Positions 36,548 to 56,368 of a stretch of 64,000 nt of DNA are shown here, piece by piece. Made by a program: the position numbers and the translations under genes. How positions within the stretch are numbered: position 1 is the stretch's first letter; each line of letters begins with the position of its first letter. Source of the stretch: a virus (taxonomy: Duplodnaviria; Caudoviricetes); the IMG/VR virus record IMGVR_UViG_3300033120_000574, positions 75,129 to 139,128 of that record; one strand, written 5' to 3'. Under the pieces are notes generated by a model, which did no database searches, was not told the DNA's origin, and saw nothing but the letters and a program-made list of their open reading frames with translations.

Positions 36548-37378
36548 TTAGCGTCTCCAAATAGGTAGCGCAGGAGCACTCTGTTTTTCCAACAGAGAAC
36601 AGTGTGAACATGAGTTGTCCAAACTCTTATTCATATGTCCGCAAGCATTGCAGGACTTGTAGATCTGCACATTAACTTGTTCTGGTGCAGCTGAAACGTT
36701 CACAACTGGACGACCGTTTCTAAATGCTTCGTACAAATGTGGTTCTTTTGCAGCTGCAATAGGTTCAACAGTAATTTGTTCCTCTCCAGAGGAGACTGTA
36801 TCAGTTGCCACACTTATGGCTTTTCCAGACTTTGTGGACATCAAACGTGATGTCAGTGCTTTCAGGATTTCTTTTGGTGTGGACATATTTACTCCAGTGC
36901 GCGAACTAGGTCCTTGAATACTAGCAGATCGCTCATTTAAAAACAAGTGTTTGATTAGTTTACCATTACTTGCTTGCAGCTTAGCTTTAAATGCAAGCAT
37001 AGTATACTGTTTGATACTTCCTAAAAACTTCGGATTGTTATAGTGCTTTAGGTAAGCAGCCTTGGCTTCTTGCTCAGAGTCGAAGCCAAGCATTACCTTC
37101 TGTTCATCTATTTCTACAAATTCAGGAGCTTTTAGCTGTGTGACTACAAAGACGTTCTCAGCATGCGGGCTTGGTCCCACATAAACATCTACTTCTTCTC
37201 CATCCGTTCCAAGGGTACCACATATGAATCCGTAGGGATTCTGCATGTAAGTAGTACCCTTAGTGTCTGAAAATGGGTCGTACCAGTGTCGTTCTGTTCC
37301 TTGGTCAGTTTCGACACAAATACACAAGTCTTGATATGTAATATGTTTCACTACACACCTCTGTAGAAATCCAACCAA
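36548..37378 (-). CDS. Inorganic pyrophosphatase-like (InPase) domain protein
   Basis: 'YGFICGTLGTDGEEVDVYVGP...VFVVTQ...DEQKVMLGF...AKAAY' is the polyvalent-protein InPase signature. Confidence 0.8.
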   Translation of the reverse strand: MVGFLQRCVVKHITYQDLCICVETDQGTERHWYDPFSDTKGTTYMQNPYGFICGTLGTDGEEVDVYVGPSPHAENVFVVTQLKAPEFVEIDEQKVMLGFDSEQEAKAAYLKHYNNPKFLGSIKQYTMLAFKAKLQASNGKLIKHLFLNERSASIQGPSSRTGVNMSTPKEILKALTSRLMSTKSGKAISVATDTVSSGEEQITVEPIAAAKEPHLYEAFRNGRPVVNVSAAPEQVNVQIYKSCNACGHMNKSLDNSCSHCSLLEKQSAPALPIWRR

Positions 37379-40300
37379 GACTCGTCTTGGTCAAATGAGA
37401 CTTCAAACGTTTTAGTGTCAATGGACTTGGTGAAACCATCTGAATAAGAGGGTTTTGAATTATCTTCAGCTACTTGTGCTTCCGGTTTGTCTTTTCCTGG
37501 TTGTGCACTTGGTGGAGCTGTGCCACCACCAGCAGCTCCAGCAGCTCCGGCAGCAGCCTGCTGTTGCTCTAGTTGCCTACGTTGTTGTTGTGCTGTGGTG
37601 TATGTTGGGTTCAAGATCAAATCTCCATCAGCAACGTCAGGAAGGTCTTCTTGTCTACGAATCTCATTCAGGGTCATGTATGTTGATACTTGTTCCTTAC
37701 GTAGTTCATGCTTTTCTTGCTCTGTGAGTTCATCAAGACCAACAAAATCAAACGTGAAATTGTCGTCCAACTTATTAACCACGTTGTCATTTATCAGCTT
37801 AGCAAGGAAGCGAAGCATTGGCTTAAGCCCACGATCACGAGATGCCTTTAGCTTCCATTCTTGGCTTGATTCGAATAGAGGTGTCTGCTGAACACCGCCA
37901 TGCATGTCAAAGTTCAACTCTGCTGGATCGATCAAAAACACAGCACAGTTGTGTACAGCAAATCTGTGTGCTTGATATGTGTGTTCTCCGTCTACCTCTA
38001 TGTTGTAAACCTTTCCTTCAAAATGGTTTGTGTGAGAAGAAGAGACGGGAACGTAATAATACGTAGCACTTTCATAAATGGTAGAACGCAGTGCAGTCAA
38101 ACTACTCACTCTGTCACGTAACTTGTTACCCTTTGGCCCTCTCAACCAAGTAGCTAGTCTAGCGGAGTAGACACCATTAATATCTAAGCGGTGCAAGTCA
38201 TTAACAGAATTGAAACCAGTGTTTGTTACAGTGTAACGATGGGAATACACATTTTGACGAAACAACAGGTGGCGAATCTGTTCTAGTGCTGTTTTTGACA
38301 CAAGAGACAAAGTACTTACTGCAGCACCAGTGACGAAAGCAGGGACGGACCCGTCTCCTGCGAACACGCCGCTTATGAATGCACGTTGAACTTCTGTAGG
38401 AGCATCAAATAGCATCTTAGGAATCTTTTTCAATACAGCTTTTGAACCAAACAAATTTCCAAGAACATCAGCAACAAGAGAACTGTGCAAACAAATGTTA
38501 GCAGTGCTTTCTTTTGCTGCATAGGTACGAGAGTGTACTCCAATTCTAGTAGCTATGCGTTCAACAGCAGCTACGTACTCTTCTTCATGTTTTGCAAAAG
38601 TAAAGTATGCTGCTGACTCGGTTGTATTTCCTTCAGCTAAATACAACCCAAGAACGTAAGCTAGCTCTTCATCCAAAGCCCAATAACGTTGAATAAATTT
38701 TCCAGCATTTCCTTTAGGTGCAATATGCAAAGCATCAGGTGACACTCTGCAATTAGCGGCTCCCAATACGGCCAAACAATCGATTGTTTGGTCTTTTCCA
38801 ACAAATTCATACGTCTTCTTTGGTATGGTTAAGTAGTCAACGCCTTCAACGATTTCTCCTGCGTTTTTCCACGCAGGCTCACCAAATAGGCGAGAGCCGT
38901 TGTGCAAGGATGAGGAAACAACCCACATAGGATGTTCTGGAGTTACTTCGATGGTTTCTCCTGCTGTAAGGGTAACCAAAGGTCCACAGTATTCTGTGAT
39001 CTGTAAGTTACTCACATTGCGTGGTTGACCTGTGTGAGAAAATACCACATCTCCAGGCACTACAGATTCTATAGCTGTAGTCGACCCGTCTGCCATCGTG
39101 ATTGGTGTATTACCAGTGAAGCAGGTAATCTTGATCAGGTATTCCATCCACATGGAGTACTCCATCTCTTGATTACTTTGATGCAAAGGAACCCAGTCAA
39201 TACCCTGCTCTGATTGCATGATGGGAGTACGCCAAGCGTTGGTGACGCCCTCTACATTGTTCTTCCACTCACGTTTGAACACTTCTAACTGATCTCCAGT
39301 TAGATTGTCTCCCTTTATGTTCAAAATACCTTTCGGGGCTGAATTGGACGTTATACAGCCACCAGCGCTCCACCTATGTCCCTCATGTGTTTGTCTGACA
39401 TCAAACATAGGAACATGTACACCAATCACGTTAATGGATTTAATCTGAATCCATCGATAGTTTAGTGCCTCTTCTTGAGCAGAGGAGCGCAATGCTTTCA
39501 ACTGTGACTTACTTCGTGTGCCACCAGGTACATACCCTATTAACCGTTGTAGTATTCCTTCTTGTGCAAAGCGAGGAATCTTACCACCAGAATCCTTTCG
39601 ATTAGGAGAAACTGTTTTATATGTTTGTAGAAACCCAATCAGAGAAGCAAATTTGTTGTTTTCACAAACACGCAAATAGTGACAAGGTCTACCACTAGCA
39701 TTCATCAAAGAATGAGACAAGCTACTAGATATACCAAGAGACCACAGCAACTGTTGTACGCCAGCAATAAGGTTAGTACTAGAGCTACACACATATGCGT
39801 GAATGCCATTCTTAACGAACCCATCAGCACTGAAGTATCCGCGTAGAAAAGCAGCTCTGTTTTCTACAGTTTCTGCAAATAAACGAGAAGGAACAACTTT
39901 CTCATGTGATGCGGAAGAAGACATCCCAACAACGTTTGTCAAGAAATCAAACAAGCCTTTGTTTCGTATAACCAACGTATCAAGTTTAGTTCCTCCCCAA
40001 TCACCACCACTTTTACGCATATGATGTGATATTCCACGAGAACCAAGCATAGTTCGAAACTTTTCTTGTACCTCTGTGTCTTTGGGAGAGAACACGCAGG
40101 ATGTCGTGTAGTTTCTCTTATTTCCAGCATTTATCGAGCTACGTGTATCAGTTACGTACCCATCACCTACCAAAAATCCAATAAATTCGTAAAAAGGGGC
40201 ATCTAACAACCCTGCGTTTACTGTAGGTTGTTTTGGTTTTTTACCTACCTGAACATAAACAGGGTCTAGTTCATTGAATTCTAACAAGGCTTCACTTTGA

Positions 40301-41487
40301 GCTACAAAATCACCAACACGCAACTCTTGTAATTCCTTCATAACTGCTTGTCCATCACAAGACAAAGACAAGAACTTGTGATTTGGAGAGGTAATTAGAC
40401 TGTAATTGTTAGCCAACCCTACGCTAACAGCCTCTTTGTGGCCAGATGACACTACGTCAGAGGTAACCCACTCAGTTCCATTCCAGCAATCAAATACCTT
40501 TCCAACCAGGGAAGAGATAGGAACCAGCCCATCACGGGTATGAACAGTAGTATCTCCTGCTACACAACCTTGCATGAAAAAGCGTCTGTTGTACTCTTCA
40601 GCGTACAAATGTGCAGTGATTACAGTGATTAGTTGTTCTAGCTCTCCATAACCATAACCTTGCACATAGATGTCAGACCTGGGGTTACGTACACCAAATA
40701 CAAGTTCTTTGTTAGTGTATACGTTACGTTGCTGTCCATTGATTAACTGTACATATGCAGGGACATCATGAAGCTCTGGATTTTGAACCTTCATGGTCTT
40801 ATAGGGCTGGGTCAAGGTCTCAGCATGTCCACGCATCAAAGCATTGGCAGTATGCGTGGCGTGTGCCAGGTCCATATCCATGTGGTTGGATGCAATACGG
40901 ATTGTAGATGCATCTACAGCAAGAAATTCGTATGGCATTCCTTTACGGTCTGGAACCACTTCGAAAGTGGCTTGATCGTACATTAAGCTGTCACGAACAA
41001 GCTTCTTTAGGAAAGTTTCAAAGTCATCACGCACATATGGACTGTGTGGATTTGGGTCTTCAGCACCACAAGCATAGATGAACTTCTCTACAGACTGTAT
41101 GAATTCACGTTCACCTTTAGTCGTTAGTCGTGCGGGGTTCTTGTGTTTAACAGCAAAGCCGAGAGATTTGTTCAAACGAAACGGTGTAGCAAACTGGGCT
41201 ACTTGATTACATCTGGTTTGTAAAATAGCAGAGATGAGTGCTAGCTGCTGGGGAATGCGTTTAAGCGTTTCGTAAGACAACGAATAACGTCTGTCTTTGT
41301 AACCCATTGCAAACTGAATAGACAACGGGTCAAACACCAAAGACTTTGGACCTTTTGCAGCCAACTCTGGATCTAGCTTAGATTTCCTGATTTCTTCGGA
41401 AACCATGGAAGGAATCATGTTTGTAGCATCTCTCCACTTGGAGACGTGCTCAACCCACTTGTCTTGGTCTTTGAATCTGTCACTCAT
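37351..41487 (-). CDS. Portal protein with two inteins (about 578 aa after splicing)
   Basis: 'ILQTRCNQV', 'FLKKLVRDSL', 'RNPRSD..GYGYGELE', 'SRDRGLKPML'. Confidence 0.9.
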   Translation of the reverse strand: MSDRFKDQDKWVEHVSKWRDATNMIPSMVSEEIRKSKLDPELAAKGPKSLVFDPLSIQFAMGYKDRRYSLSYETLKRIPQQLALISAILQTRCNQVAQFATPFRLNKSLGFAVKHKNPARLTTKGEREFIQSVEKFIYACGAEDPNPHSPYVRDDFETFLKKLVRDSLMYDQATFEVVPDRKGMPYEFLAVDASTIRIASNHMDMDLAHATHTANALMRGHAETLTQPYKTMKVQNPELHDVPAYVQLINGQQRNVYTNKELVFGVRNPRSDIYVQGYGYGELEQLITVITAHLYAEEYNRRFFMQGCVAGDTTVHTRDGLVPISSLVGKVFDCWNGTEWVTSDVVSSGHKEAVSVGLANNYSLITSPNHKFLSLSCDGQAVMKELQELRVGDFVAQSEALLEFNELDPVYVQVGKKPKQPTVNAGLLDAPFYEFIGFLVGDGYVTDTRSSINAGNKRNYTTSCVFSPKDTEVQEKFRTMLGSRGISHHMRKSGGDWGGTKLDTLVIRNKGLFDFLTNVVGMSSSASHEKVVPSRLFAETVENRAAFLRGYFSADGFVKNGIHAYVCSSSTNLIAGVQQLLWSLGISSSLSHSLMNASGRPCHYLRVCENNKFASLIGFLQTYKTVSPNRKDSGGKIPRFAQEGILQRLIGYVPGGTRSKSQLKALRSSAQEEALNYRWIQIKSINVIGVHVPMFDVRQTHEGHRWSAGGCITSNSAPKGILNIKGDNLTGDQLEVFKREWKNNVEGVTNAWRTPIMQSEQGIDWVPLHQSNQEMEYSMWMEYLIKITCFTGNTPITMADGSTTAIESVVPGDVVFSHTGQPRNVSNLQITEYCGPLVTLTAGETIEVTPEHPMWVVSSSLHNGSRLFGEPAWKNAGEIVEGVDYLTIPKKTYEFVGKDQTIDCLAVLGAANCRVSPDALHIAPKGNAGKFIQRYWALDEELAYVLGLYLAEGNTTESAAYFTFAKHEEEYVAAVERIATRIGVHSRTYAAKESTANICLHSSLVADVLGNLFGSKAVLKKIPKMLFDAPTEVQRAFISGVFAGDGSVPAFVTGAAVSTLSLVSKTALEQIRHLLFRQNVYSHRYTVTNTGFNSVNDLHRLDINGVYSARLATWLRGPKGNKLRDRVSSLTALRSTIYESATYYYVPVSSSHTNHFEGKVYNIEVDGEHTYQAHRFAVHNCAVFLIDPAELNFDMHGGVQQTPLFESSQEWKLKASRDRGLKPMLRFLAKLINDNVVNKLDDNFTFDFVGLDELTEQEKHELRKEQVSTYMTLNEIRRQEDLPDVADGDLILNPTYTTAQQQRRQLEQQQAAAGAAGAAGGGTAPPSAQPGKDKPEAQVAEDNSKPSYSDGFTKSIDTKTFEVSFDQDESWLDFYRGV
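37948..39123 (-). mobile_element. Intein 2 in the portal (392 aa, LAGLIDADG)
   Basis: CFTGNT...TPEHP...LGLYLAEG...ISGVFAGDG...VHN/C. Confidence 0.9.
39343..40566 (-). mobile_element. Intein 1 in the portal (408 aa, LAGLIDADG)
   Basis: CVAGDT...SPNHKF...IGFLVGDG...LRGYFSADG...TSN/S. Confidence 0.9.
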
Positions 41488-44945: not shown

Positions 44946-44960
44946 TTTGTGAGTTAGTAG

Positions 44961-45122: not shown

Positions 45123-45190
45123 AGGGTCTAGTGAGAATCGAACTCACCAACAATGTTTTGCAGACATCGGTCAAACCATTTGTTAGACCC
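45123..45190 (-). tRNA. tRNA-Cys(GCA), short D arm
   Basis: Loop CT-GCA-AA. Confidence 0.75.
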
Positions 45191-45274: not shown

Positions 45275-45346
45275 TACCTTGTAGGAGAGTTGAACTCCTC
45301 TTACCCGATTGAAAGTCGAGAGTCCTTTCCGATAGACGAACAAGGC
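45275..45346 (-). tRNA. tRNA-Glu(UUC)
   Basis: Loop CT-TTC-AA. Confidence 0.85.
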
Positions 45347-45349
45347 ATA

Positions 45350-45421
45350 TGACCCTATTGGGAATCTAACCCAACTTACCTAGTTGAGAACCAGGCTTCT
45401 TGAACACTAGAAGATAGGGCC
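45350..45421 (-). tRNA. tRNA-Glu(CUC)
   Basis: Loop TT-CTC-AA; atypical T-loop TTAGATT. Confidence 0.75.
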
Positions 45422-45864
45422 GTGGCACGTGTACGAGATGCTTTCAAAGGGCACCCACATTATGTACACATTTTTAAGAACCATGTAGCGATTGTAGTAA
45501 GTTTGGAGTCTGCTACATCTGTTGCTTTAACCCACAACAGGGATAGTAACATTCCTTATACACAACTGTGTCCTCACGACAACCTTTTAAAAACTACGTA
45601 GCAGACCCATGCGAAGCAGGGATTTACACCCTTGCAGCGTCACCGCGAACTTCTACACATACCTTAAGTTATATGTGCTGCGTCTTTTCAAAAACTACTT
45701 GGCGATATACTAACTGCTTTGTGTAGTTTTACCTACGCCATCTGCCTCGCACGACACCGCGAGTGTTCCTGTATATCTTTAAAGAACCAATTTTGAGCAC
45801 ACAAGCAGTCAAATATATCGAGGTCTCACGCCCAACTTTGACAACCGCAAGGTTTTTAAGAACT
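45422..45864 (-). ncRNA. Unclassified structured RNA region with periodic boxA-like motifs
   Basis: No ORF in the track; multiple helices; RGTTYTTDAAA motif every 76-114 nt. Confidence 0.55.
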
Positions 45865-45866
45865 CA

Positions 45867-45952
45867 CGAAGAGCTGAATACTCGAAATCCACACCCTTTT
45901 GAGGTGCCATCTGTTTAGCAAACAGTGCTAGTTCCTAACTAGTTAACTCTTC
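45867..45952 (-). tRNA. tRNA-Ser(GCU)
   Basis: Loop TT-GCT-AA; long variable arm. Confidence 0.8.
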
Positions 45953-45980
45953 ATTTTAAGAACCACCAACAACGTTGGTA

Positions 45981-46067
45981 TGGAGAACAGACGAATCGAA
46001 CGCCACACCCTTTTGAGGTGCCCACTCACTTCCAATGAGGTCCAGTCCCAGACATGGTTTACTCTCC
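45981..46067 (-). tRNA. tRNA-Ser(GGA)
   Basis: Loop TT-GGA-AG; long variable arm. Confidence 0.8.
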
Positions 46068-46070
46068 AAA

Positions 46071-46156
46071 CGGTAGATAGAGGTATCGCGCCCCACACCC
46101 GAAAGGGTGCACACTGGTTTCAAAGCAGGTTCGGAGGCTTCTCCGATTTATCTACC
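46071..46156 (-). tRNA. tRNA-Ser(UGA)
   Basis: Loop TT-TGA-AA; long variable arm; atypical T-loop. Confidence 0.7.
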
Positions 46157-46158
46157 AA

Positions 46159-46701
46159 TCAACTTTCATCTACCGCAAGATTCCAGTACAAGTAATCTTT
46201 CCACTCTTTTGGAGAGTTTGATAGACTTACCATGACTTTCTTCTTAGGAGACCAATCCGGTTTCGTAGGAACACTGTGCAGGCGCATCTTAGCCTCTGCA
46301 GGAGTCCTATCCGCCTTCTTACTGTTGCAAGTCAAGCAAGACGTTGTGATGTTGTCCCACACTGTCTTACCACCCTTAGAGCGGGGCAAAACGTGGTCAT
46401 ACGTCAACTTGCTCATAGTGAATGGCTTGTTGCAGTACTGACAAGTGTAGTTGTCTCTTGCGAAGACATTCATCCTAGAGAACTTGATTTTCTCTTTCTT
46501 AGGCTTTACATAGGTTGTCAACCTAAGTACAGCAGGACAACACATAGTGTGATTTGCACTCTTTAGTTCAAAATCAGGGTATTCCTCTATTATGTCAACT
46601 TTCTTCTCAAACCAAAGAACTATGGCTCTTTGCCAAGTAAGAATCTTCATTGGCTCGTACGTAGCGTTCAGTAACAAGACTTTATGTTCTTCAGCTAGCA
46701 T
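46159..46701 (-). CDS. HNH endonuclease (McrA/HNH_5 family)
   Basis: 'LLLNATYEP', 'RDNYTCQYC...TYDHVLPRSKGG...CLTCNSKK'. Confidence 0.9.
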   Translation of the reverse strand: MLAEEHKVLLLNATYEPMKILTWQRAIVLWFEKKVDIIEEYPDFELKSANHTMCCPAVLRLTTYVKPKKEKIKFSRMNVFARDNYTCQYCNKPFTMSKLTYDHVLPRSKGGKTVWDNITTSCLTCNSKKADRTPAEAKMRLHSVPTKPDWSPKKKVMVSLSNSPKEWKDYLYWNLAVDES

Positions 46702-46704
46702 AAA

Positions 46705-46777
46705 TCCACCTGGAGGGAGTTGAACCCACTCATGTCCGCTTATAAGACGGATGCCTAAACCGTTTGGCTTCAGGTGG
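46705..46777 (-). tRNA. tRNA-Ile(UAU)
   Basis: Stem TCCGT/GCGGA; loop CT-TAT-AA. Confidence 0.8.
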
Positions 46778-46779
46778 GT

Positions 46780-46852
46780 ATATCAGCATCGAGAATCGAA
46801 CTCGAACGTTGAAGCGTATGAAACCTAACGACTAGCCACAGTATGCTGATAT
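46780..46852 (-). tRNA. Atypical tRNA(CAU)-like element
   Basis: 9-bp terminal stem, canonical T arm, loop TT-CAT-AC, reduced D arm. Confidence 0.5.
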
Positions 46853-46875
46853 GCAGAGAACCTGCAAGGGAAAAT

Positions 46876-46949
46876 TGGGAGCGATCGCCGGAGTTGAACA
46901 CGGTCCTGAAGCTTATGAGACTTCGGTGCAGCCCTTACACCACCACGCC
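46876..46949 (-). tRNA. tRNA-Met/Ile2(CAU), imperfect acceptor stem
   Basis: Loop CT-CAT-AA; encoded CCA. Confidence 0.6.
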
Positions 46950-46950
46950 A

Positions 46951-46995
46951 TGTCCTAGGAGGGATTCGAACCCTCATGCTTTCGCTACACCAAGT
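46951..46995 (-). pseudogene. 3' half of a type II (Leu-like) tRNA
   Basis: Variable arm, GAGGG-TTCGAAT-CCCTC and acceptor strand; no D arm. Confidence 0.6.
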
Positions 46996-47021
46996 AAAGG
47001 ACAACCAAAACAAGTATGCTA

Positions 47022-47106
47022 TAGAAACGAAGAGATTTGAACTCTTATGCACCTCACAGTGCGTTTGCGTTTGAAGCAAATGTGTAAACCATTCCACCAC
47101 GTTTCC
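47022..47106 (-). tRNA. tRNA-Leu(CAA)
   Basis: Loop TT-CAA-AC; long variable arm. Confidence 0.85.
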
Positions 47107-47116
47107 AAATAAATTT

Positions 47117-47545
47117 ATGCGAAAAAAGTATTCAAGGTACACTAAAGAGCAACTAGAACCTCTTGTTAAAGAGAGCAAATCCTATGCGGAAGTTATAAAG
47201 AAACTAGGTCTTAGGATTTGTGGAGGTAACTACGTGCTCCTACAAAGAAATATAGACAAGTTTCAAATCAGCTGTGAACATATGCTATTCCAAGCAGCGA
47301 ACCAAGGAAGAGAATTTGTAAAATATGAAGAAATTTCGACGCACGCAGCTATAAAGAAACGTATTCTACGAGAACGAGGACTTGTCTGTGAGGGGTGTAA
47401 TTTAGACACCTGGTTAGGTAAGCCTATTACCTTAGAGATGGATCATATAGATGGGGACAACAGGAACAACACAAAAACAAACATAAGAATTTTGTGTCCA
47501 AATTGTCACAGTCAAACTCCAACTTGGAAGAACAACAAGAAGTAA
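47117..47545 (+). CDS. HNH homing endonuclease, antisense to the tRNA operon
   Basis: 'CEGC...LEMDHIDGDNRNN...LCPNCHSQT'. Confidence 0.9.
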   Translation: MRKKYSRYTKEQLEPLVKESKSYAEVIKKLGLRICGGNYVLLQRNIDKFQISCEHMLFQAANQGREFVKYEEISTHAAIKKRILRERGLVCEGCNLDTWLGKPITLEMDHIDGDNRNNTKTNIRILCPNCHSQTPTWKNNKK

Positions 47546-47567
47546 GTACCAGTTCCACCACACGGAC
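47546..47567 (-). pseudogene. 5' fragment of a Leu-like tRNA
   Basis: GTCCGTG-TG-GTGGAACTGGTAC, ending at the HNH stop codon. Confidence 0.6.
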
Positions 47568-47655
47568 ATTCAAAATTGGTTGCCAGTTTAACTGTTACGT
47601 AAAGCACTTCTAGCAAGAAGCTTAGATTTATATTGTCACCCTAATCCAAGGGTGT

Positions 47656-47735
47656 TGCAGTTGGAGAGATTCGAACTCTCATACCGAAGCGGGAAATCTT
47701 AAAGATCCTGTGTATGCCAATTCCACCACAACTGC
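47656..47735 (-). tRNA. tRNA-Leu(UAA)
   Basis: Leu-type D loop; loop TT-TAA-GA; weak anticodon stem. Confidence 0.7.
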
Positions 47736-47749
47736 ATTTAGTTTATCAA

Positions 47750-47833
47750 TGACACAGGTGAGAGTCGAACTCACAAGAGGAATTACCCACAACAGTTTCT
47801 AAGACTGCCCGCTCGCCGTTGGCGTACTGTGCC
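47750..47833 (-). tRNA. tRNA-Leu(UAG)
   Basis: Loop CT-TAG-AA. Confidence 0.8.
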
Positions 47834-47838
47834 GTAAA

Positions 47839-47910
47839 TACCAGATTAGGGAATCGAACCCAACTATATCACTGTGTAAAAGTGGTGCCTACCCAGTCAG
47901 CTTATCTGGC
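47839..47910 (-). tRNA. tRNA-Val(UAC)
   Basis: Loop TT-TAC-AC. Confidence 0.85.
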
Positions 47911-47915
47911 ATACT

Positions 47916-47987
47916 CGTTGTTGAAGAGAATCGAACTCTTATTTAAACTTTAGGAAAGTCTTGCTCTATCCGTTGAACTACAACAAC
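47916..47987 (-). tRNA. tRNA-Arg(CCU)
   Basis: Loop TT-CCT-AA. Confidence 0.85.
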
Positions 47988-47990
47988 AGA

Positions 47991-48034
47991 CGCTTTTGTT
48001 TGGACTTGAACCTACCACTTGACGCCAAATCAAA
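47991..48034 (-). pseudogene. 3' portion of a degenerate tRNA
   Basis: Hairpin, GG-TTCAAGT-CC and CAAAAGC-G. Confidence 0.55.
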
Positions 48035-48046
48035 ATTGAATTATAC

Positions 48047-48121
48047 CGTCCTTGGTAGGAATCGAACCTACAAAATTGCTTGTTTAGAAGACAAGTGTTC
48101 TATCCGTTGAACTACAAGGAC
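48047..48121 (-). tRNA. tRNA-Arg(UCU)
   Basis: Loop CT-TCT-AA. Confidence 0.85.
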
Positions 48122-48125
48122 AAAA

Positions 48126-48665
48126 ATGATATCAGTAACATGTGAAAACTGTAGCAAAGAATTCTTCAAGAATAAGTCTGAAGCTGCTCGGAGCCCTAGA
48201 CACTTTTGTAGCAGGTCTTGTGCAAATAGCAAGCACAACACCGAGAAAGCAAAACGAAGTAAGAAGCAAAGAACATGTACTCTATGTACAAAGAGTTACA
48301 TACAAACAAAAGCGAGACGCAAGATATGTGAAGTTTGTTTTGTTCCACCACTCTGTAAAGATAACATGACACTCAGTCAGTGTAAGGACAAATTAAGTGT
48401 TCAAGGCAAGCACCCATCATGGTACACTGTGCACGTAAGAGGACATAATAGAACGAAGAATAAAAAGCTAGCTACTAGCTGCCAGAAATGTGGGTACAGT
48501 AAACATGTAGAGTGTTGTCATATCAAACCAGTCGCAAGTTTTGAAGGCAATGCAACGTTGGCTGAAATTAATCATGTGGACAATATTGTTGTTTTATGTA
48601 GAAATTGTCACTGGGAGTTTGACCACAATCAACTAAGCATAGTAGATATTCCAAAGCGTAAGTAA
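48126..48665 (+). CDS. HNH endonuclease with Zn fingers, antisense to the tRNA operon
   Basis: 'CENC..FCSRSC', 'CQKCG..CHIKP..N..VLCRNCHWEFD'. Confidence 0.85.
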   Translation: MISVTCENCSKEFFKNKSEAARSPRHFCSRSCANSKHNTEKAKRSKKQRTCTLCTKSYIQTKARRKICEVCFVPPLCKDNMTLSQCKDKLSVQGKHPSWYTVHVRGHNRTKNKKLATSCQKCGYSKHVECCHIKPVASFEGNATLAEINHVDNIVVLCRNCHWEFDHNQLSIVDIPKRK

Positions 48666-48692
48666 TTACGCTATCCTTTGTGCTACAAAAGC
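48666..48692 (-). pseudogene. 5' fragment of an Arg-like tRNA
   Basis: GCTTTTG-TA-GCAC-AAAGGATA-GCGT, ending at the HNH stop codon. Confidence 0.6.
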
Positions 48693-48694
48693 AA

Positions 48695-48769
48695 GCCTAG
48701 GTAGAGGGATTTGAACCCCTCATTTCACGGTTCGTAGCCGCGCGTGGTATCCGTTACACTATACCTAGA
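48695..48769 (-). tRNA. tRNA-Arg(ACG)
   Basis: Loop CT-ACG-AA. Confidence 0.85.
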
Positions 48770-48771
48770 TA

Positions 48772-48843
48772 AGCCGCCACAGGTACTTGAAACCTGTTTT
48801 CCTCCATACCAAGGAGGTACATCACCATATATGTTTTAGCGGC
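48772..48843 (-). tRNA. tRNA-Thr(GGU)
   Basis: Loop TT-GGT-AT. Confidence 0.85.
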
Positions 48844-48846
48844 ACA

Positions 48847-48919
48847 TGGACAAGACTGGACTCGAACCAGCGGTCTTCTGAGTGCAAGTCAGAGGTTTTC
48901 CCAACTAAACTACTCGCCC
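48847..48919 (-). tRNA. tRNA-Ala(UGC)
   Basis: Loop CT-TGC-AC. Confidence 0.85.
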
Positions 48920-48930
48920 AATTAAAACTG

Positions 48931-49040
48931 ACGAAATTGTTACCATTACAACACATTGCCACTGCAGTGAATTCAAGACTAATCAAGCAAAATTACGCCC
49001 ATAGTCTTAACAATGCTGGGAATCGAACCCAGGTCTTCGT
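48931..49040 (-). ncRNA. Circularly permuted tRNA-mimic (YrlA-type Y RNA-like)
   Basis: Order 5'->3': terminal stem, T arm, closed acceptor-like stem, D arm, terminal stem. Confidence 0.65.
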
Positions 49041-49045
49041 ACTTC

Positions 49046-49113
49046 CACGTTATATAGGAATCGAACCTATGATGAAAAGTTTTGGAGGCTTCTCTGTGCC
49101 CAGCACCTAACGT
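49046..49113 (-). tRNA. tRNA-Trp(CCA), short D arm
   Basis: Loop CT-CCA-AA. Confidence 0.7.
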
Positions 49114-49131
49114 ATACAAGCTAAGATAAGA

Positions 49132-49203
49132 AGTGACTGACGGGAATTGAACCCGCTAATACCTGATTCACAATCAAGCGCTTGGCCATTTAGCTTCAGC
49201 CAC
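49132..49203 (-). tRNA. tRNA-His(GUG)
   Basis: Loop TT-GTG-AA. Confidence 0.85.
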
Positions 49204-53218: not shown

Positions 53219-56200
53219 TTATAAAGACGATGCAGTCAAGTCTACAACCTCACAAAAACCACCTGAACAAGCCAACGTCTGTGTACCAGACGTTGAATCT
53301 TCTAGTTCGAATTCTTTAAGTTTACTCCAATCAAAAGAAGTAGGCATCTTTGCCAACAAAACATCATATTGTTCCTTTGTAATAGCTTCATATGGTGCTT
53401 GGGCGTAAGTGTGGTCATTGCTAGGCAAAAAAGACACACCAGAGCAGGTATCGAAGTTGTTCCAAATCCAGTTACCTACTTCCAAAAATTCAGAGTCGGT
53501 ATAATACACAGTAATGGATGGTTTGTGTTCACACCAGTGCTCTTGATACATTGACCACAAGCGCAACTGATGCATCGCACCTACATCTGCGACGACCGTT
53601 GCTGTATCTGGACTTTTCATTGGAAATGAAAACACAAATACATCTTCAGGTTTCATGCTATCTGGTTCACAAGGAAACAATCCAGAGTCTCGCATCATAG
53701 TAGCCAGTGGATCTCTTTGATCCGCACGGACACGACGAATGTAATACTTGCTGAATCGAGGATGGATTCCACTAGAAGAATCCACCAGCTGGGACACGGT
53801 ATTGTGGCTCTTTACAGCGCCAGCATAGTACCAGTGTGTGTTTTCTACTTCAACGTCATAAGTAGGAACAACTCGGGACACTTTAGAGGACACAACTTTT
53901 CCAAGGATAGAGGACTTTGTAGAAGTCTCATGATGCCACGCAGAAACATTACTAGCCTTGATGCTGTGCTTCTTAAGCATTTGAATAGAAGTGGGGTCTT
54001 GGATAGCAGTTCCAGACAACAACCACATGTGCTTACTCTCCTGAAAGTTCTTGCCTTTCGAATTTAGAGAACGGCCAATGCCAAGTCCCACTGACCAAGC
54101 AACATCCTGTAGTTGCTTAGCAAAACCATCATACGCAGTGGTGAACATAAACCTAGACACGTTATTAGTAGTTGAGATGCATCCGTCACTGTCTAGAAGA
54201 CCTGCGAAAAAGGCAACAACAGACTCTCTAGACGACTCTCGTATCTTACGAGGTATTGACATAGTTGACTTATCAAATCCATTAGAAATAAACCAGTCAT
54301 AAAGAAATACACTACCCTTTTCTAAAACAAAAGCATTTCTTCCTTCTGAAGCGGGAAGGATGTTACTGTCTACATCGAACAGCTCCTTAAGAACATTTTG
54401 TGCTTTTTCCAAATGTGTAATGTTCTGATCTATGAATCTGATTCTAGACTTGTTAGGAGACAAGCAGCCATCCCCGTATAGGTAACCAATAAGCCACGCC
54501 AGGTTTGGCGTCATGTGAGAAGGTTGTTTTCCTTCAGACTTAACTTGAGCATGATTTTGGTCGATTGGTACTGCCGTGTGTATTAATTCTGCTTCACTTT
54601 CTTTGGAGTAAGAGGTGAGACACACATCTAAGATATCGCCCGGTTGGATGTTTGCAGCAGACACCCAATCGTTAACATCTGTATACTTATGAAGTTTGGA
54701 TCTGTCGTAACGTTGTTTTACAAACCATTTATGGTTTGTAGTTGACTCAACAGTCATACCATAAGACAAAGTCAACTCAATAACAGGCTGTTCTCCGTTA
54801 GCATACGTCTTTGAGATTTTGCTATTGGAGGTTCCTTGAAGAGCCTGCACGTTGCCTTGTACATCACACCAAACACCACTTCCATGTGCCTCCATCAACT
54901 CTTCCAAAGTTAACAGTCCCTTTGATGTAGACGTAAGAGCGTCCCCTGGTCTACAACCACTAGGCTTGCAACAAGTAATACTTGTGCTTTGGTTTATTCC
55001 AAGTTTTTCACTCCAGACTTTATTTGTGGAAATTGCTACTTCACGCAAGGTATTAAGCCATTCAGGCAGTTCAGCAGCTTCTGGATTGCCCATAATAGGG
55101 TGGTCCATAATACCAGTAAGAGAAACACCAAGAAGAGCCTCCTCTACTGTGTTGCGTTCCCAAACCTTTCTTAAATAGCGAAATGAAGTAAGTGTAGCTT
55201 GCAGAGTTCCAAGAATAGTTGCTTTAACGACTTTGTCTTTTAGCGTGTCTAAAGTATCTGTAGACCGGATCACCACCTCTGACAAGTTACAAAATTGATT
55301 GGGTCTAAGAATTATTTCACTACAGGGATTAGTTCCAAACGAATGGTTTGCGTCACGTCTACCTGTCTTTGCTGCTTGCTTTTGTGAAGCAACCCTACTG
55401 AAGATTCCACGTTCTCCAGACTTAGATTCATACAAAGACTGCCATTCTTTTAGAAATATCTCAAACTCTGGTTTCTCTGTATAACATGCTGAGTTGTTGG
55501 CAAGCTGGCGCTGTTTGTTGTTCTCCCACCATTGTCCAGATTTAGCAAGACGCATACGGTCATCGCTCAAGTTTGATAGACTTATGAGAGCAGATCTACG
55601 TACACCACCTACCACAACGATATCAGCAATCATGCATACCAAGTCATGGCACTCTAAAGAAGAAAGTTTTCTACCAGCTGCTTTCTTGAACATTGTTACA
55701 CAAAACTTAAACAACTTCACAAGAGGCTCTGGACCACTTGCACGTCCGCCAAACGTCTTTAGACGTGCTCCCGCCAAGCGAAGATTCGAAACATCCCATT
55801 TGGGTACGGTACCGTTATACAAAAGAGTAAGTAATTGCCGTAGCGAAGTAGCCCAACCAATCTTGGAATCAGCCACTACAATGGTAGTATCCGAGTCATG
55901 AAAGGTCTCAGCAATATCTGGAAGCTGACTGACGTATTGTCGTTCTACGCTAAAGCCTACTCCAGTACCACACATAAGGATGTACATGATCTCATCAAAC
56001 ACTTTGGGGTTGTCAATGACCGCATAGCTGCAGTTATACCCGGAAACTTGGTCGCGCTCTAGAGCAGGACCAGCGGTCATCAAGCAACGCATAGAAGGCA
56101 TAACTTCAAGGTCGTGAATAGGCGTAAACAGGGCTTCAATCTCTTTGGCAAATGTTGGATGTTTCTTTGCAAAGAATGAAACGTAACGACCAACTGTTTC

Positions 56201-56368
56201 CTTCCACGTCTCGCGGCGTCCCTCATCTTCAAGCCAACGGCTATAGCGTGACAAGTGAATAAATTCAGAATACAAAGGTGTTGCAGTTGAGTCGAACGCT
56301 GTATCCTTCTCTTGTTCTACAATGCTGATAAAGTTCTTATTTGAACGAATTGTGGGAAGCTCTGTCAT
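53219..56368 (-). CDS. nrdJ: Class II (B12-dependent) ribonucleotide reductase with intein
   Basis: 'PSMR', 'YNCS', 'GTGVGFS', 'VGGVRRSA', 'TNPCSE', 'KPSG/T', 'WCEHKPS', C-terminal C...C. Confidence 0.92.
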   Translation of the reverse strand: MTELPTIRSNKNFISIVEQEKDTAFDSTATPLYSEFIHLSRYSRWLEDEGRRETWKETVGRYVSFFAKKHPTFAKEIEALFTPIHDLEVMPSMRCLMTAGPALERDQVSGYNCSYAVIDNPKVFDEIMYILMCGTGVGFSVERQYVSQLPDIAETFHDSDTTIVVADSKIGWATSLRQLLTLLYNGTVPKWDVSNLRLAGARLKTFGGRASGPEPLVKLFKFCVTMFKKAAGRKLSSLECHDLVCMIADIVVVGGVRRSALISLSNLSDDRMRLAKSGQWWENNKQRQLANNSACYTEKPEFEIFLKEWQSLYESKSGERGIFSRVASQKQAAKTGRRDANHSFGTNPCSEIILRPNQFCNLSEVVIRSTDTLDTLKDKVVKATILGTLQATLTSFRYLRKVWERNTVEEALLGVSLTGIMDHPIMGNPEAAELPEWLNTLREVAISTNKVWSEKLGINQSTSITCCKPSGCRPGDALTSTSKGLLTLEELMEAHGSGVWCDVQGNVQALQGTSNSKISKTYANGEQPVIELTLSYGMTVESTTNHKWFVKQRYDRSKLHKYTDVNDWVSAANIQPGDILDVCLTSYSKESEAELIHTAVPIDQNHAQVKSEGKQPSHMTPNLAWLIGYLYGDGCLSPNKSRIRFIDQNITHLEKAQNVLKELFDVDSNILPASEGRNAFVLEKGSVFLYDWFISNGFDKSTMSIPRKIRESSRESVVAFFAGLLDSDGCISTTNNVSRFMFTTAYDGFAKQLQDVAWSVGLGIGRSLNSKGKNFQESKHMWLLSGTAIQDPTSIQMLKKHSIKASNVSAWHHETSTKSSILGKVVSSKVSRVVPTYDVEVENTHWYYAGAVKSHNTVSQLVDSSSGIHPRFSKYYIRRVRADQRDPLATMMRDSGLFPCEPDSMKPEDVFVFSFPMKSPDTATVVADVGAMHQLRLWSMYQEHWCEHKPSITVYYTDSEFLEVGNWIWNNFDTCSGVSFLPSNDHTYAQAPYEAITKEQYDVLLAKMPTSFDWSKLKEFELEDSTSGTQTLACSGGFCEVVDLTASSL
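53801..54955 (-). mobile_element. Intein in NrdJ (385 aa, LAGLIDADG)
   Basis: KPSG/CRPGD...IGYLYGDG...FAGLLDSDG...KSHN/TVSQL. Confidence 0.92.

Follow-up and report, generated by a model that had tools for sequence, protein, structure and literature searches.

An HNH_2 endonuclease gene and an intact tRNA-Arg(UCU) nested in the remains of a probable tRNA-Arg gene of a viral tRNA array

The tRNA array of a virus known from metagenomic sequence carries what is probably a free-standing HNH_2 homing-endonuclease gene, coupled to tRNA-Arg(UCU) and nested in a former tRNA-Arg gene. The sequence analysed (the window) is a stretch of 64,000 nt, part of a 139-kb IMG/VR virus record. ARAGORN finds 25 tRNA genes between nt 44960 and 49987, all on the minus strand, and these make up the tRNA array of the window. 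Three HNH-type ORFs break up the array, at 46159–46701 (−), 47117–47545 (+) and 48126–48665 (+); the third is the subject of this report.

Organisation of the Broken tRNA Gene

In the direction of the array (minus strand), the features around the third ORF are as follows.

48696..48768, minus strand: tRNA-Arg(ACG), neighbour upstream of the broken gene (ARAGORN; Rfam tRNA, 51 bits)
48671..48692, minus strand: 5′ fragment, 22 nt, of the broken gene, probably a tRNA-Arg (sequence landmarks)
48126..48665, plus strand: HNH endonuclease gene, 179 aa, antisense to the array (ORF; Pfam PF13391)
48047..48121, minus strand: intact canonical tRNA-Arg(UCU) (Rfam tRNA, 65 bits; ARAGORN)
48016..48046, minus strand: 31 nt spacer from the intact tRNA to the 3′ remnant (sequence, alignment)
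47991..48015, minus strand: 3′ remnant of the broken tRNA (sequence; weak nhmmer match to a tRNA 3′-half profile)
47916..47987, minus strand: tRNA-Arg(CCU), neighbour downstream of the broken gene (Rfam tRNA, 60 bits)

The slot of the broken gene is fixed by the position of tRNA-Arg(ACG), from which the 5′ fragment is separated by 3 nt. The same distance lies between the 3′ remnant and tRNA-Arg(CCU), and 3 nt is the usual inter-tRNA distance in this array. The 5′ fragment consists of a 7 nt acceptor strand, T8 and A9, a 4 nt strand of the D stem, and a D loop ending in GGATAG. The 3′ remnant retains a degraded T stem (3/5 pairs), a T loop, a 7 nt acceptor strand and the discriminator G, and apparently holds about 15 additional bases. 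Between them, the ATG of the HNH gene lies 4 nt from the 5′ end of tRNA-Arg(UCU) (48121–48047), which has a 7 nt variable loop, is the sole UCU tRNA of the array and has the top Rfam tRNA score of the region. The spacer contains a TATAAT box and an 8 nt match to the variable loop of the intact tRNA. The fragment, HNH gene, intact tRNA, remnant and 4 nt gap at the ATG had all been noted in a preliminary description of this locus, and each was recovered at the same position. That description also had the 5′ fragment ending at the HNH stop codon; the fragment does end close by, but it stops 5 nt short of the complement of that codon (48665–48663).

The acceptor strands of the 5′ fragment and the 3′ remnant form 7/7 Watson–Crick pairs, as had been reported. 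Constrained to the slot, this pairing alone arose in 712 of 200,000 shuffles of both flanks, while the pairing together with T8/R9 and a T-loop motif in register arose in none of 200,000. Two pieces bearing tRNA landmarks, with complementary acceptor strands and normal spacing to their neighbours, are what a tRNA pseudogene split by an insertion should show. When the halves were joined in silico, none of 143 joins was called as a tRNA by ARAGORN, as expected with the anticodon arm gone. Given a T stem with 3/5 pairs and no surviving anticodon arm, the split gene is dead.

Further tRNA relics are present in the array at 49046–49113, 49008–49032, 46880–46948 and 45123–45147. They comprise orphan T arms and weak tRNA matches (21 and 17 bits), including one whose anticodon loop is CAU-like, and suggest that genes of this array often decay. 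ARAGORN also reports a long-arm tRNA with the anticodon UUA, which would be an ochre suppressor, at 47654–47736 (−). It is about 80% identical to annotated tRNA-Leu genes of Aeromonas phages, and its anticodon stem pairs poorly in either register, so that a suppressor and a tRNA-Leu(UAA) are both candidates.

Identity of the Broken Gene

From its D region and its position, the broken gene is probably a former tRNA-Arg. Among 304 distinct tRNAs of the comparison loci, GGATAG in the D region belongs to tRNA-Arg in nine cases out of nine, and of 79 viral tRNAs whose D arm follows the related pattern seen in the Arg genes of the window, 78 are also Arg. Compared with 336 tRNAs, the 5′ fragment is most similar to Arg(UCU) and Arg(CCU) of the window itself, whose scores are about four standard deviations over the mean, and the gene is flanked by Arg(ACG) and Arg(CCU). 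The 3′ remnant has a 7 nt variable loop and some of the T arm in common with the intact Arg(UCU), a similarity that ranks 7th of 336; it is not uniquely Arg-like, and its likeness to tRNA-Arg(UCU) is only suggestive. We infer that the gene was specifically a UCU tRNA, its anticodon having been lost. A scan with the D-arm pattern matched 88 stretches; among the 80 of these analysed as loci, the closest tRNA is 73% identical and none of the loci carries a homologue of the HNH gene.

The HNH_2 Nuclease

The 179 aa product of the HNH gene (48126–48665) matches Pfam HNH_2 (PF13391) with an E value of 3.4e-9 and 36.9 bits against a cutoff of 21, and has two N-terminal Cys-rich, zinc-finger-like modules preceding the HNH_2 domain. 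All 32 of the invariant columns in a 10-sequence family alignment are kept, including the Cys pairs and the motif His and Asn, and from this conservation the nuclease looks intact. The gene is a stand-alone ORF outside any intron, and it lies within a phage tRNA cluster, a setting it shares with SegB-like nucleases. A GIY-YIG domain is absent, as the Pfam matches of the window's HNH ORFs are to HNH families only. Comparison with solved structures gave nothing informative (a marginal match to TagI, E 0.19), and a promoter scan detected no plus-strand promoter for the gene, with counts not above those of shuffles.

About 90 homologues were found, nearly all metagenomic and with up to 50% identity. 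In a maximum-likelihood tree, the window protein forms a clade with those of loci L002 and L003 (support 95/86), and in both of these a UCU tRNA adjoins the start codon. The sample taken for comparison comprised 45 IMG/VR loci with homologues of the window HNH gene. Most of the 45 lie within tRNA arrays, with the HNH gene mostly antisense to the tRNAs. The HNH start is immediately adjoined by a UCU anticodon stem-loop in 12 distinct loci as well as in the window, and Arg(UCU) accounts for 17 of the 356 tRNAs in the homologue loci. By gene order, the HNH_2 family is linked to tRNA-Arg(UCU) across unrelated viral contigs.

Recurrence of the Nested Layout

The nested order of a 5′ tRNA piece, an antisense HNH gene, a UCU tRNA and a complementary 3′ piece recurs in L002, L007 and L026. 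L002 carries the closest full-length HNH homologue. There, tRNA-Val is followed after 5 nt by a 20 nt tRNA 5′ piece, within which the HNH stop codon lies. Next come the antisense HNH gene, a UCU tRNA-like gene abutting the HNH start, a spacer, and finally a T arm with an acceptor strand complementary to the 5′ piece. The split of the host tRNA in L007 falls within the anticodon loop and costs no bases; the 5′ pieces of the window, L002 and L026 end inside or just past the D arm. The preliminary description had anticipated that HNH genes flanked by complementary tRNA halves would be present in other genomes; a uniform scan found them in 5 of 38 dereplicated loci, L002 included, against a mean of 0.5 (at most 3) in mismatched-flank controls. 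GGATAG is present in four of the five 5′ pieces at nested loci. The junctions at these loci cluster at tRNA positions 20–35, suggesting that the HNH_2 enzyme cuts within this region.

Group I introns were found at three of the comparison loci. The intron mode of ARAGORN mostly merged adjacent tRNAs and was used only as a pointer, to L007, L027, L031 and L032.

L032:5859–6535: group I intron with antisense HNH gene, in tRNA-Arg(UCU), above the Rfam threshold
L002:5174–5414: ORF-less group I intron in tRNA-Lys(UUU), above the Rfam threshold
L128:1230–1420: ORF-less group I intron in tRNA-Arg(UCU), above the Rfam threshold

In L032, a tRNA-Arg(UCU) is interrupted in its anticodon loop by an intron (Rfam 54.1 bits against a threshold of 50) with the HNH gene antisense inside it, the configuration of a group I intron-encoded endonuclease in a tRNA gene; the window has neither the ribozyme nor the anticodon arm. 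L027 has the same exon structure as L032, with only a weak ribozyme signal. L128, among the closest homologues, has an intron-bearing copy of tRNA-Arg(UCU) beside the HNH gene, which from its gene order is the layout of collaborative homing as described in PMC3984707. That review, of 2014, found the phage group I introns then known to be all in protein-coding genes. Three arrangements of the HNH_2 family are seen: the gene lies in a self-splicing intron, next to a copy of the target that an intron protects, or in a cassette with a spare tRNA.

Variant tRNA(UCU) Genes beside the HNH

At many of the homologue loci, the UCU tRNA linked to the HNH gene is non-canonical.

L002:5915–5992: non-canonical UCU tRNA-like gene
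L006:5836–5910: non-canonical UCU tRNA-like gene
L007:1533–1609: non-canonical UCU tRNA-like gene
L008:3773–3848: non-canonical UCU tRNA-like gene
L009:5854–5937: non-canonical UCU tRNA-like gene
L011:5879–5955: non-canonical UCU tRNA-like gene
L017:5894–5977: non-canonical UCU tRNA-like gene
L024:5871–5946: non-canonical UCU tRNA-like gene
L026:5879–5955: non-canonical UCU tRNA-like gene
L127, just past the HNH stop: non-canonical UCU tRNA-like gene
L222 (Ep030), about 1068–1146: non-canonical UCU tRNA-like gene

These variants conserve the UCU anticodon loop and have only about 6 nt between the acceptor stem and the anticodon stem. A helix of 3–6 bp joins this short segment to bases 3′ of the anticodon arm, and is followed, before the T arm, by a GG-containing stretch resembling a D loop. 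They are missed by ARAGORN and score about 29–32 bits with Rfam. Compensatory changes are seen in all of their helices, the new one included, which indicates that the linked variant tRNAs are under selection.

Filled and Empty Sites in Related Viruses

Presence/absence polymorphism at a single locus was seen for homologues of the window nuclease in two sets of relatives. An antisense HNH gene and a variant tRNA(UCU) lie between two protein genes in L006/L218. Between the counterparts of these genes in L219, which are 98% and 94% identical to those of L006/L218, there is a canonical tRNA-Arg(UCU) alone, and the sequences are identical up to the junctions. L220 (77% identical) has the same empty-site arrangement as L219. 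In the second set, Erwinia phage Ep030 carries a variant tRNA(UCU) and an HNH gene between tRNA-Gln and tRNA-Leu, where the Kolesnikvirus phiEa21-4, phiEa104 and about 100 related phages have an ordinary tRNA-Arg(UCU); among the relatives listed, the flanks are 96–99% identical up to the junctions. In both comparisons, as in the window, the unit has the HNH stop codon directly at one of its edges. In both alignments, the place of a canonical tRNA-Arg(UCU) has been taken by a single unit made up of the nuclease and a variant tRNA(UCU).

The HNH gene of Ep030 (L222, OQ603357.1), which starts near nt 1160, is interrupted at codon 17 by an in-frame TAG in place of the Ser of its relatives. The record carries an UNVERIFIED flag, and the TAG could reflect either a decaying nuclease gene or a sequencing error.

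For the window phage, megablast and blastn searches against cultured phages found no close relative, nor did a search with a flanking 495 aa protein, and exact 22–24-mers of both halves and of tRNA-Arg(ACG) had no match in IMG/VR or the JGI metagenomes. With no close relative found in these searches, there is no empty site or intact ancestral gene with which to compare the window copy.

A Second Cassette and Other Homing Elements in the Window

A second cassette lies nearby in the array.

46951..47567: sister cassette, Leu-type, with an unrelated HNH gene

It consists of a Leu-type 5′ fragment, an antisense HNH gene (47117–47545), an intact tRNA-Leu(CAA) (47106–47022) and an orphan 3′ half; the acceptor strands pair at 5/7 positions. 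The HNH gene (+) encodes 142 aa with a weak HNH match. It shares the HNH motif alone with the 179 aa protein, and the two match different Pfam families, in agreement with the preliminary description, which had assigned them to separate families. Its own family has more than 585 matches in IMG/VR. Among 80 loci with homologues of the 142 aa protein (L047–L126), 73 have tRNAs within 1.5 kb, and the adjoining tRNA is mostly tRNA-Leu, on either strand. The further claim that the strategy recurs with an unrelated nuclease also holds for this family, and a single array appears to contain two unrelated nucleases, each tied to one isotype and arranged in the same layout.

The third HNH gene (46159–46701, −) belongs to HNH_5 (E 1.8e-17) and begins 4 nt past the 3′ end of tRNA-Ile(UAU), in the orientation of the tRNAs. 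A sub-clade of the HNH_2 family likewise adjoins tRNA-Ile(UAU) in other contigs.

The portal protein (1378 aa, 37351–41487) and the ribonucleotide reductase (1049 aa, 53219–56368), both encoded on the minus strand, are oversized and have internal matches to an endonuclease PHROG, which suggests that they contain inteins. The window phage appears to be rich in homing elements.

Interpretation and Alternatives

The layout set out in the preliminary description is confirmed, and its reading as a tRNA-targeting, tRNA-replacing cassette is supported by comparative evidence, namely the nested layout of L002, L007 and L026 and the two filled/empty pairs. Under this reading, the nuclease would cut tRNA-Arg(UCU)-type genes that lack the HNH, between the D arm and the anticodon loop, and repair from a nuclease-carrying genome would copy in the HNH gene together with its linked tRNA, presumed to be cut-resistant. 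Where flanking homology is long, the old tRNA gene would be cleanly replaced. Where it is not, as in the window, the unit would land within the target, whose anticodon arm would be lost and whose outer 5′ and 3′ pieces would remain as relics or short homology arms. The spare tRNA would maintain AGA decoding, the role played by the self-splicing intron for the intron-borne relatives. From the sequence comparisons we infer that tRNA-Arg genes are cut and the linked one is not, and that nuclease and tRNA reached the window together. The window phage has no recognisable close relative, which is consistent with a distant donor.

A bolder reading is possible rather than probable. The HNH_2 family may have evolved a second answer to target damage, in the form of a cleavage-resistant spare tRNA-Arg(UCU). 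In many lineages this tRNA would have been refolded, with the anticodon arm preceding both the D-loop sequence and the partner of the D stem, and would still be competent in translation. The broken halves would then act as short homology arms, allowing the unit to home into the tRNA-Arg genes of unrelated phages and to turn over their arrays.

It is unlikely, though the most serious of the alternatives, that the HNH gene alone was inserted beside a long-resident tRNA-Arg(UCU), the broken gene being an older duplicate disrupted by the same or another rearrangement, and the intact tRNA never mobile and with no replacement role. The D arm of the intact tRNA is nearly identical to that of Arg(CCU), suggesting local ancestry, and segmental duplication within tRNA clusters is a known effect of SegB-type nucleases (PMC13096335). 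The linked tRNA of the window is canonical, and may be an old resident or local allele and not an import. However, it lies between the halves and hence entered with or after the insertion, HNH and tRNA(UCU) were gained together in both filled/empty pairs, and their adjacency is kept across very different contigs.

An origin from a decayed group I intron is improbable. The halves would then be the former exons of tRNA-Arg(UCU), the ribozyme would have eroded, and the tRNA copy would have been captured later. Members of the family do occur in or beside group I introns of tRNA-Arg(UCU) (L032, L128 and, weakly, L027), but models of group I and other introns gave no match in 45300–49200 at E values up to 10, the 5′ piece ends in the D loop (around position 22) and not in the anticodon loop, and the entire anticodon arm is gone.

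The several other relics in the array make it conceivable that the two pieces are unrelated debris of different decayed tRNA genes, complementary by coincidence; this is very improbable given the absence of the full pattern from the shuffles and the paired flanking halves, different in sequence, at four other loci. Retention of the halves for a function, such as an acceptor/T-arm minihelix formed across 650 nt to guide RNase P, or a split tRNA, would account for the perfect acceptor pairing despite T-stem decay and for the 3′-piece T stems of L007, L011 and L026, which vary in sequence and remain paired, but it is scarcely credible with the anticodon arm absent and the window T stem broken, no 5′ partner in L011, and no halves at all after clean replacements.

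Relation to Known Systems

A cassette in which a free-standing HNH_2 gene and a linked tRNA-Arg(UCU) displace the target tRNA gene resembles several known systems in part. SegB of T4 is a GIY-YIG homing endonuclease, encoded in a tRNA gene cluster, that cuts tRNA genes at the T-loop motif and drives tRNA gene inheritance and amplification (PMC2330249, PMC13096335). It too is specified by a free-standing gene within a phage tRNA cluster, cuts tRNA genes of SegB-less relatives, drives turnover of neighbouring tRNA genes and is statistically associated with tRNAs across phages. SegB recognises the T-loop motif of many tRNAs with no isotype preference, whereas the window family is of the HNH type, is tied to tRNA-Arg(UCU), sits inside its broken target gene and carries a spare copy.

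In collaborative and intronless homing, a free-standing nuclease gene lies beside a resistant allele or an intron-split target (PMC3984707; MobE, PMC2790892), and nuclease and resistant allele are co-converted into sensitive genomes. The window nuclease gene likewise adjoins a presumed-resistant version of its target. The targets of those systems are protein-coding (psbA, DNA polymerase, nrd). In the present family it would be a tRNA gene that is attacked; a complete spare tRNA can act as the presumed resistant allele, and two flanking pieces of the former target may survive.

HNH nucleases are encoded in the tRNA region of T5, and HNH genes flank bacterial tRNA arrays (PMC8421152). Known HNH-type site-specific nucleases among phage tRNA genes are of the same type and in the same setting as the window HNH; in their published descriptions, on which the comparison was based, no mention was found of coupling to one isotype, nesting in a broken tRNA or a replacement tRNA. 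I-Ssp6803I, as cited in PMC3984707, is a group I intron endonuclease aimed at the anticodon region of cyanobacterial tRNA-fMet. L032 and L027 (the latter with a weak intron score) are similar in having an HNH gene in an intervening sequence of the tRNA-Arg(UCU) anticodon loop; the window differs in that there is no ribozyme, and harm to the host would be offset by a spare gene and not by splicing.

Integrative elements that target tRNA genes carry an attachment site that restores the 3′ end of the tRNA, and endonuclease ORFs of fungal mitochondria bring a replacement gene segment. In these cases, as in the window, the invader carries a copy of what it disrupts and a displaced remnant is left. 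The integrative elements use integrases, however, the fungal ORFs hit protein-coding genes, and the replacement is partial in both, whereas here a nuclease-driven element would provide a tRNA gene in full. Open-access texts yielded no description of an HNH family that is isotype-specific, carries a spare tRNA and is nested in its broken target.

Significance

The comparison set also gives indications of phage tRNA genes interrupted by group I introns, and of a D arm displaced in variants of tRNA-Arg(UCU). Since both Ep030 and phiEa21-4 have been cultured, the replacement is accessible at the bench. Homing nucleases were thought to spare their hosts by means of self-splicing introns or inteins, or a resistant neighbouring allele. 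If the present reading is true, a whole spare copy of the target tRNA would be a third route by which harm to the host is avoided, and it would provide a concrete mechanism for the fast gain, loss and decay of tRNA genes in phage arrays.
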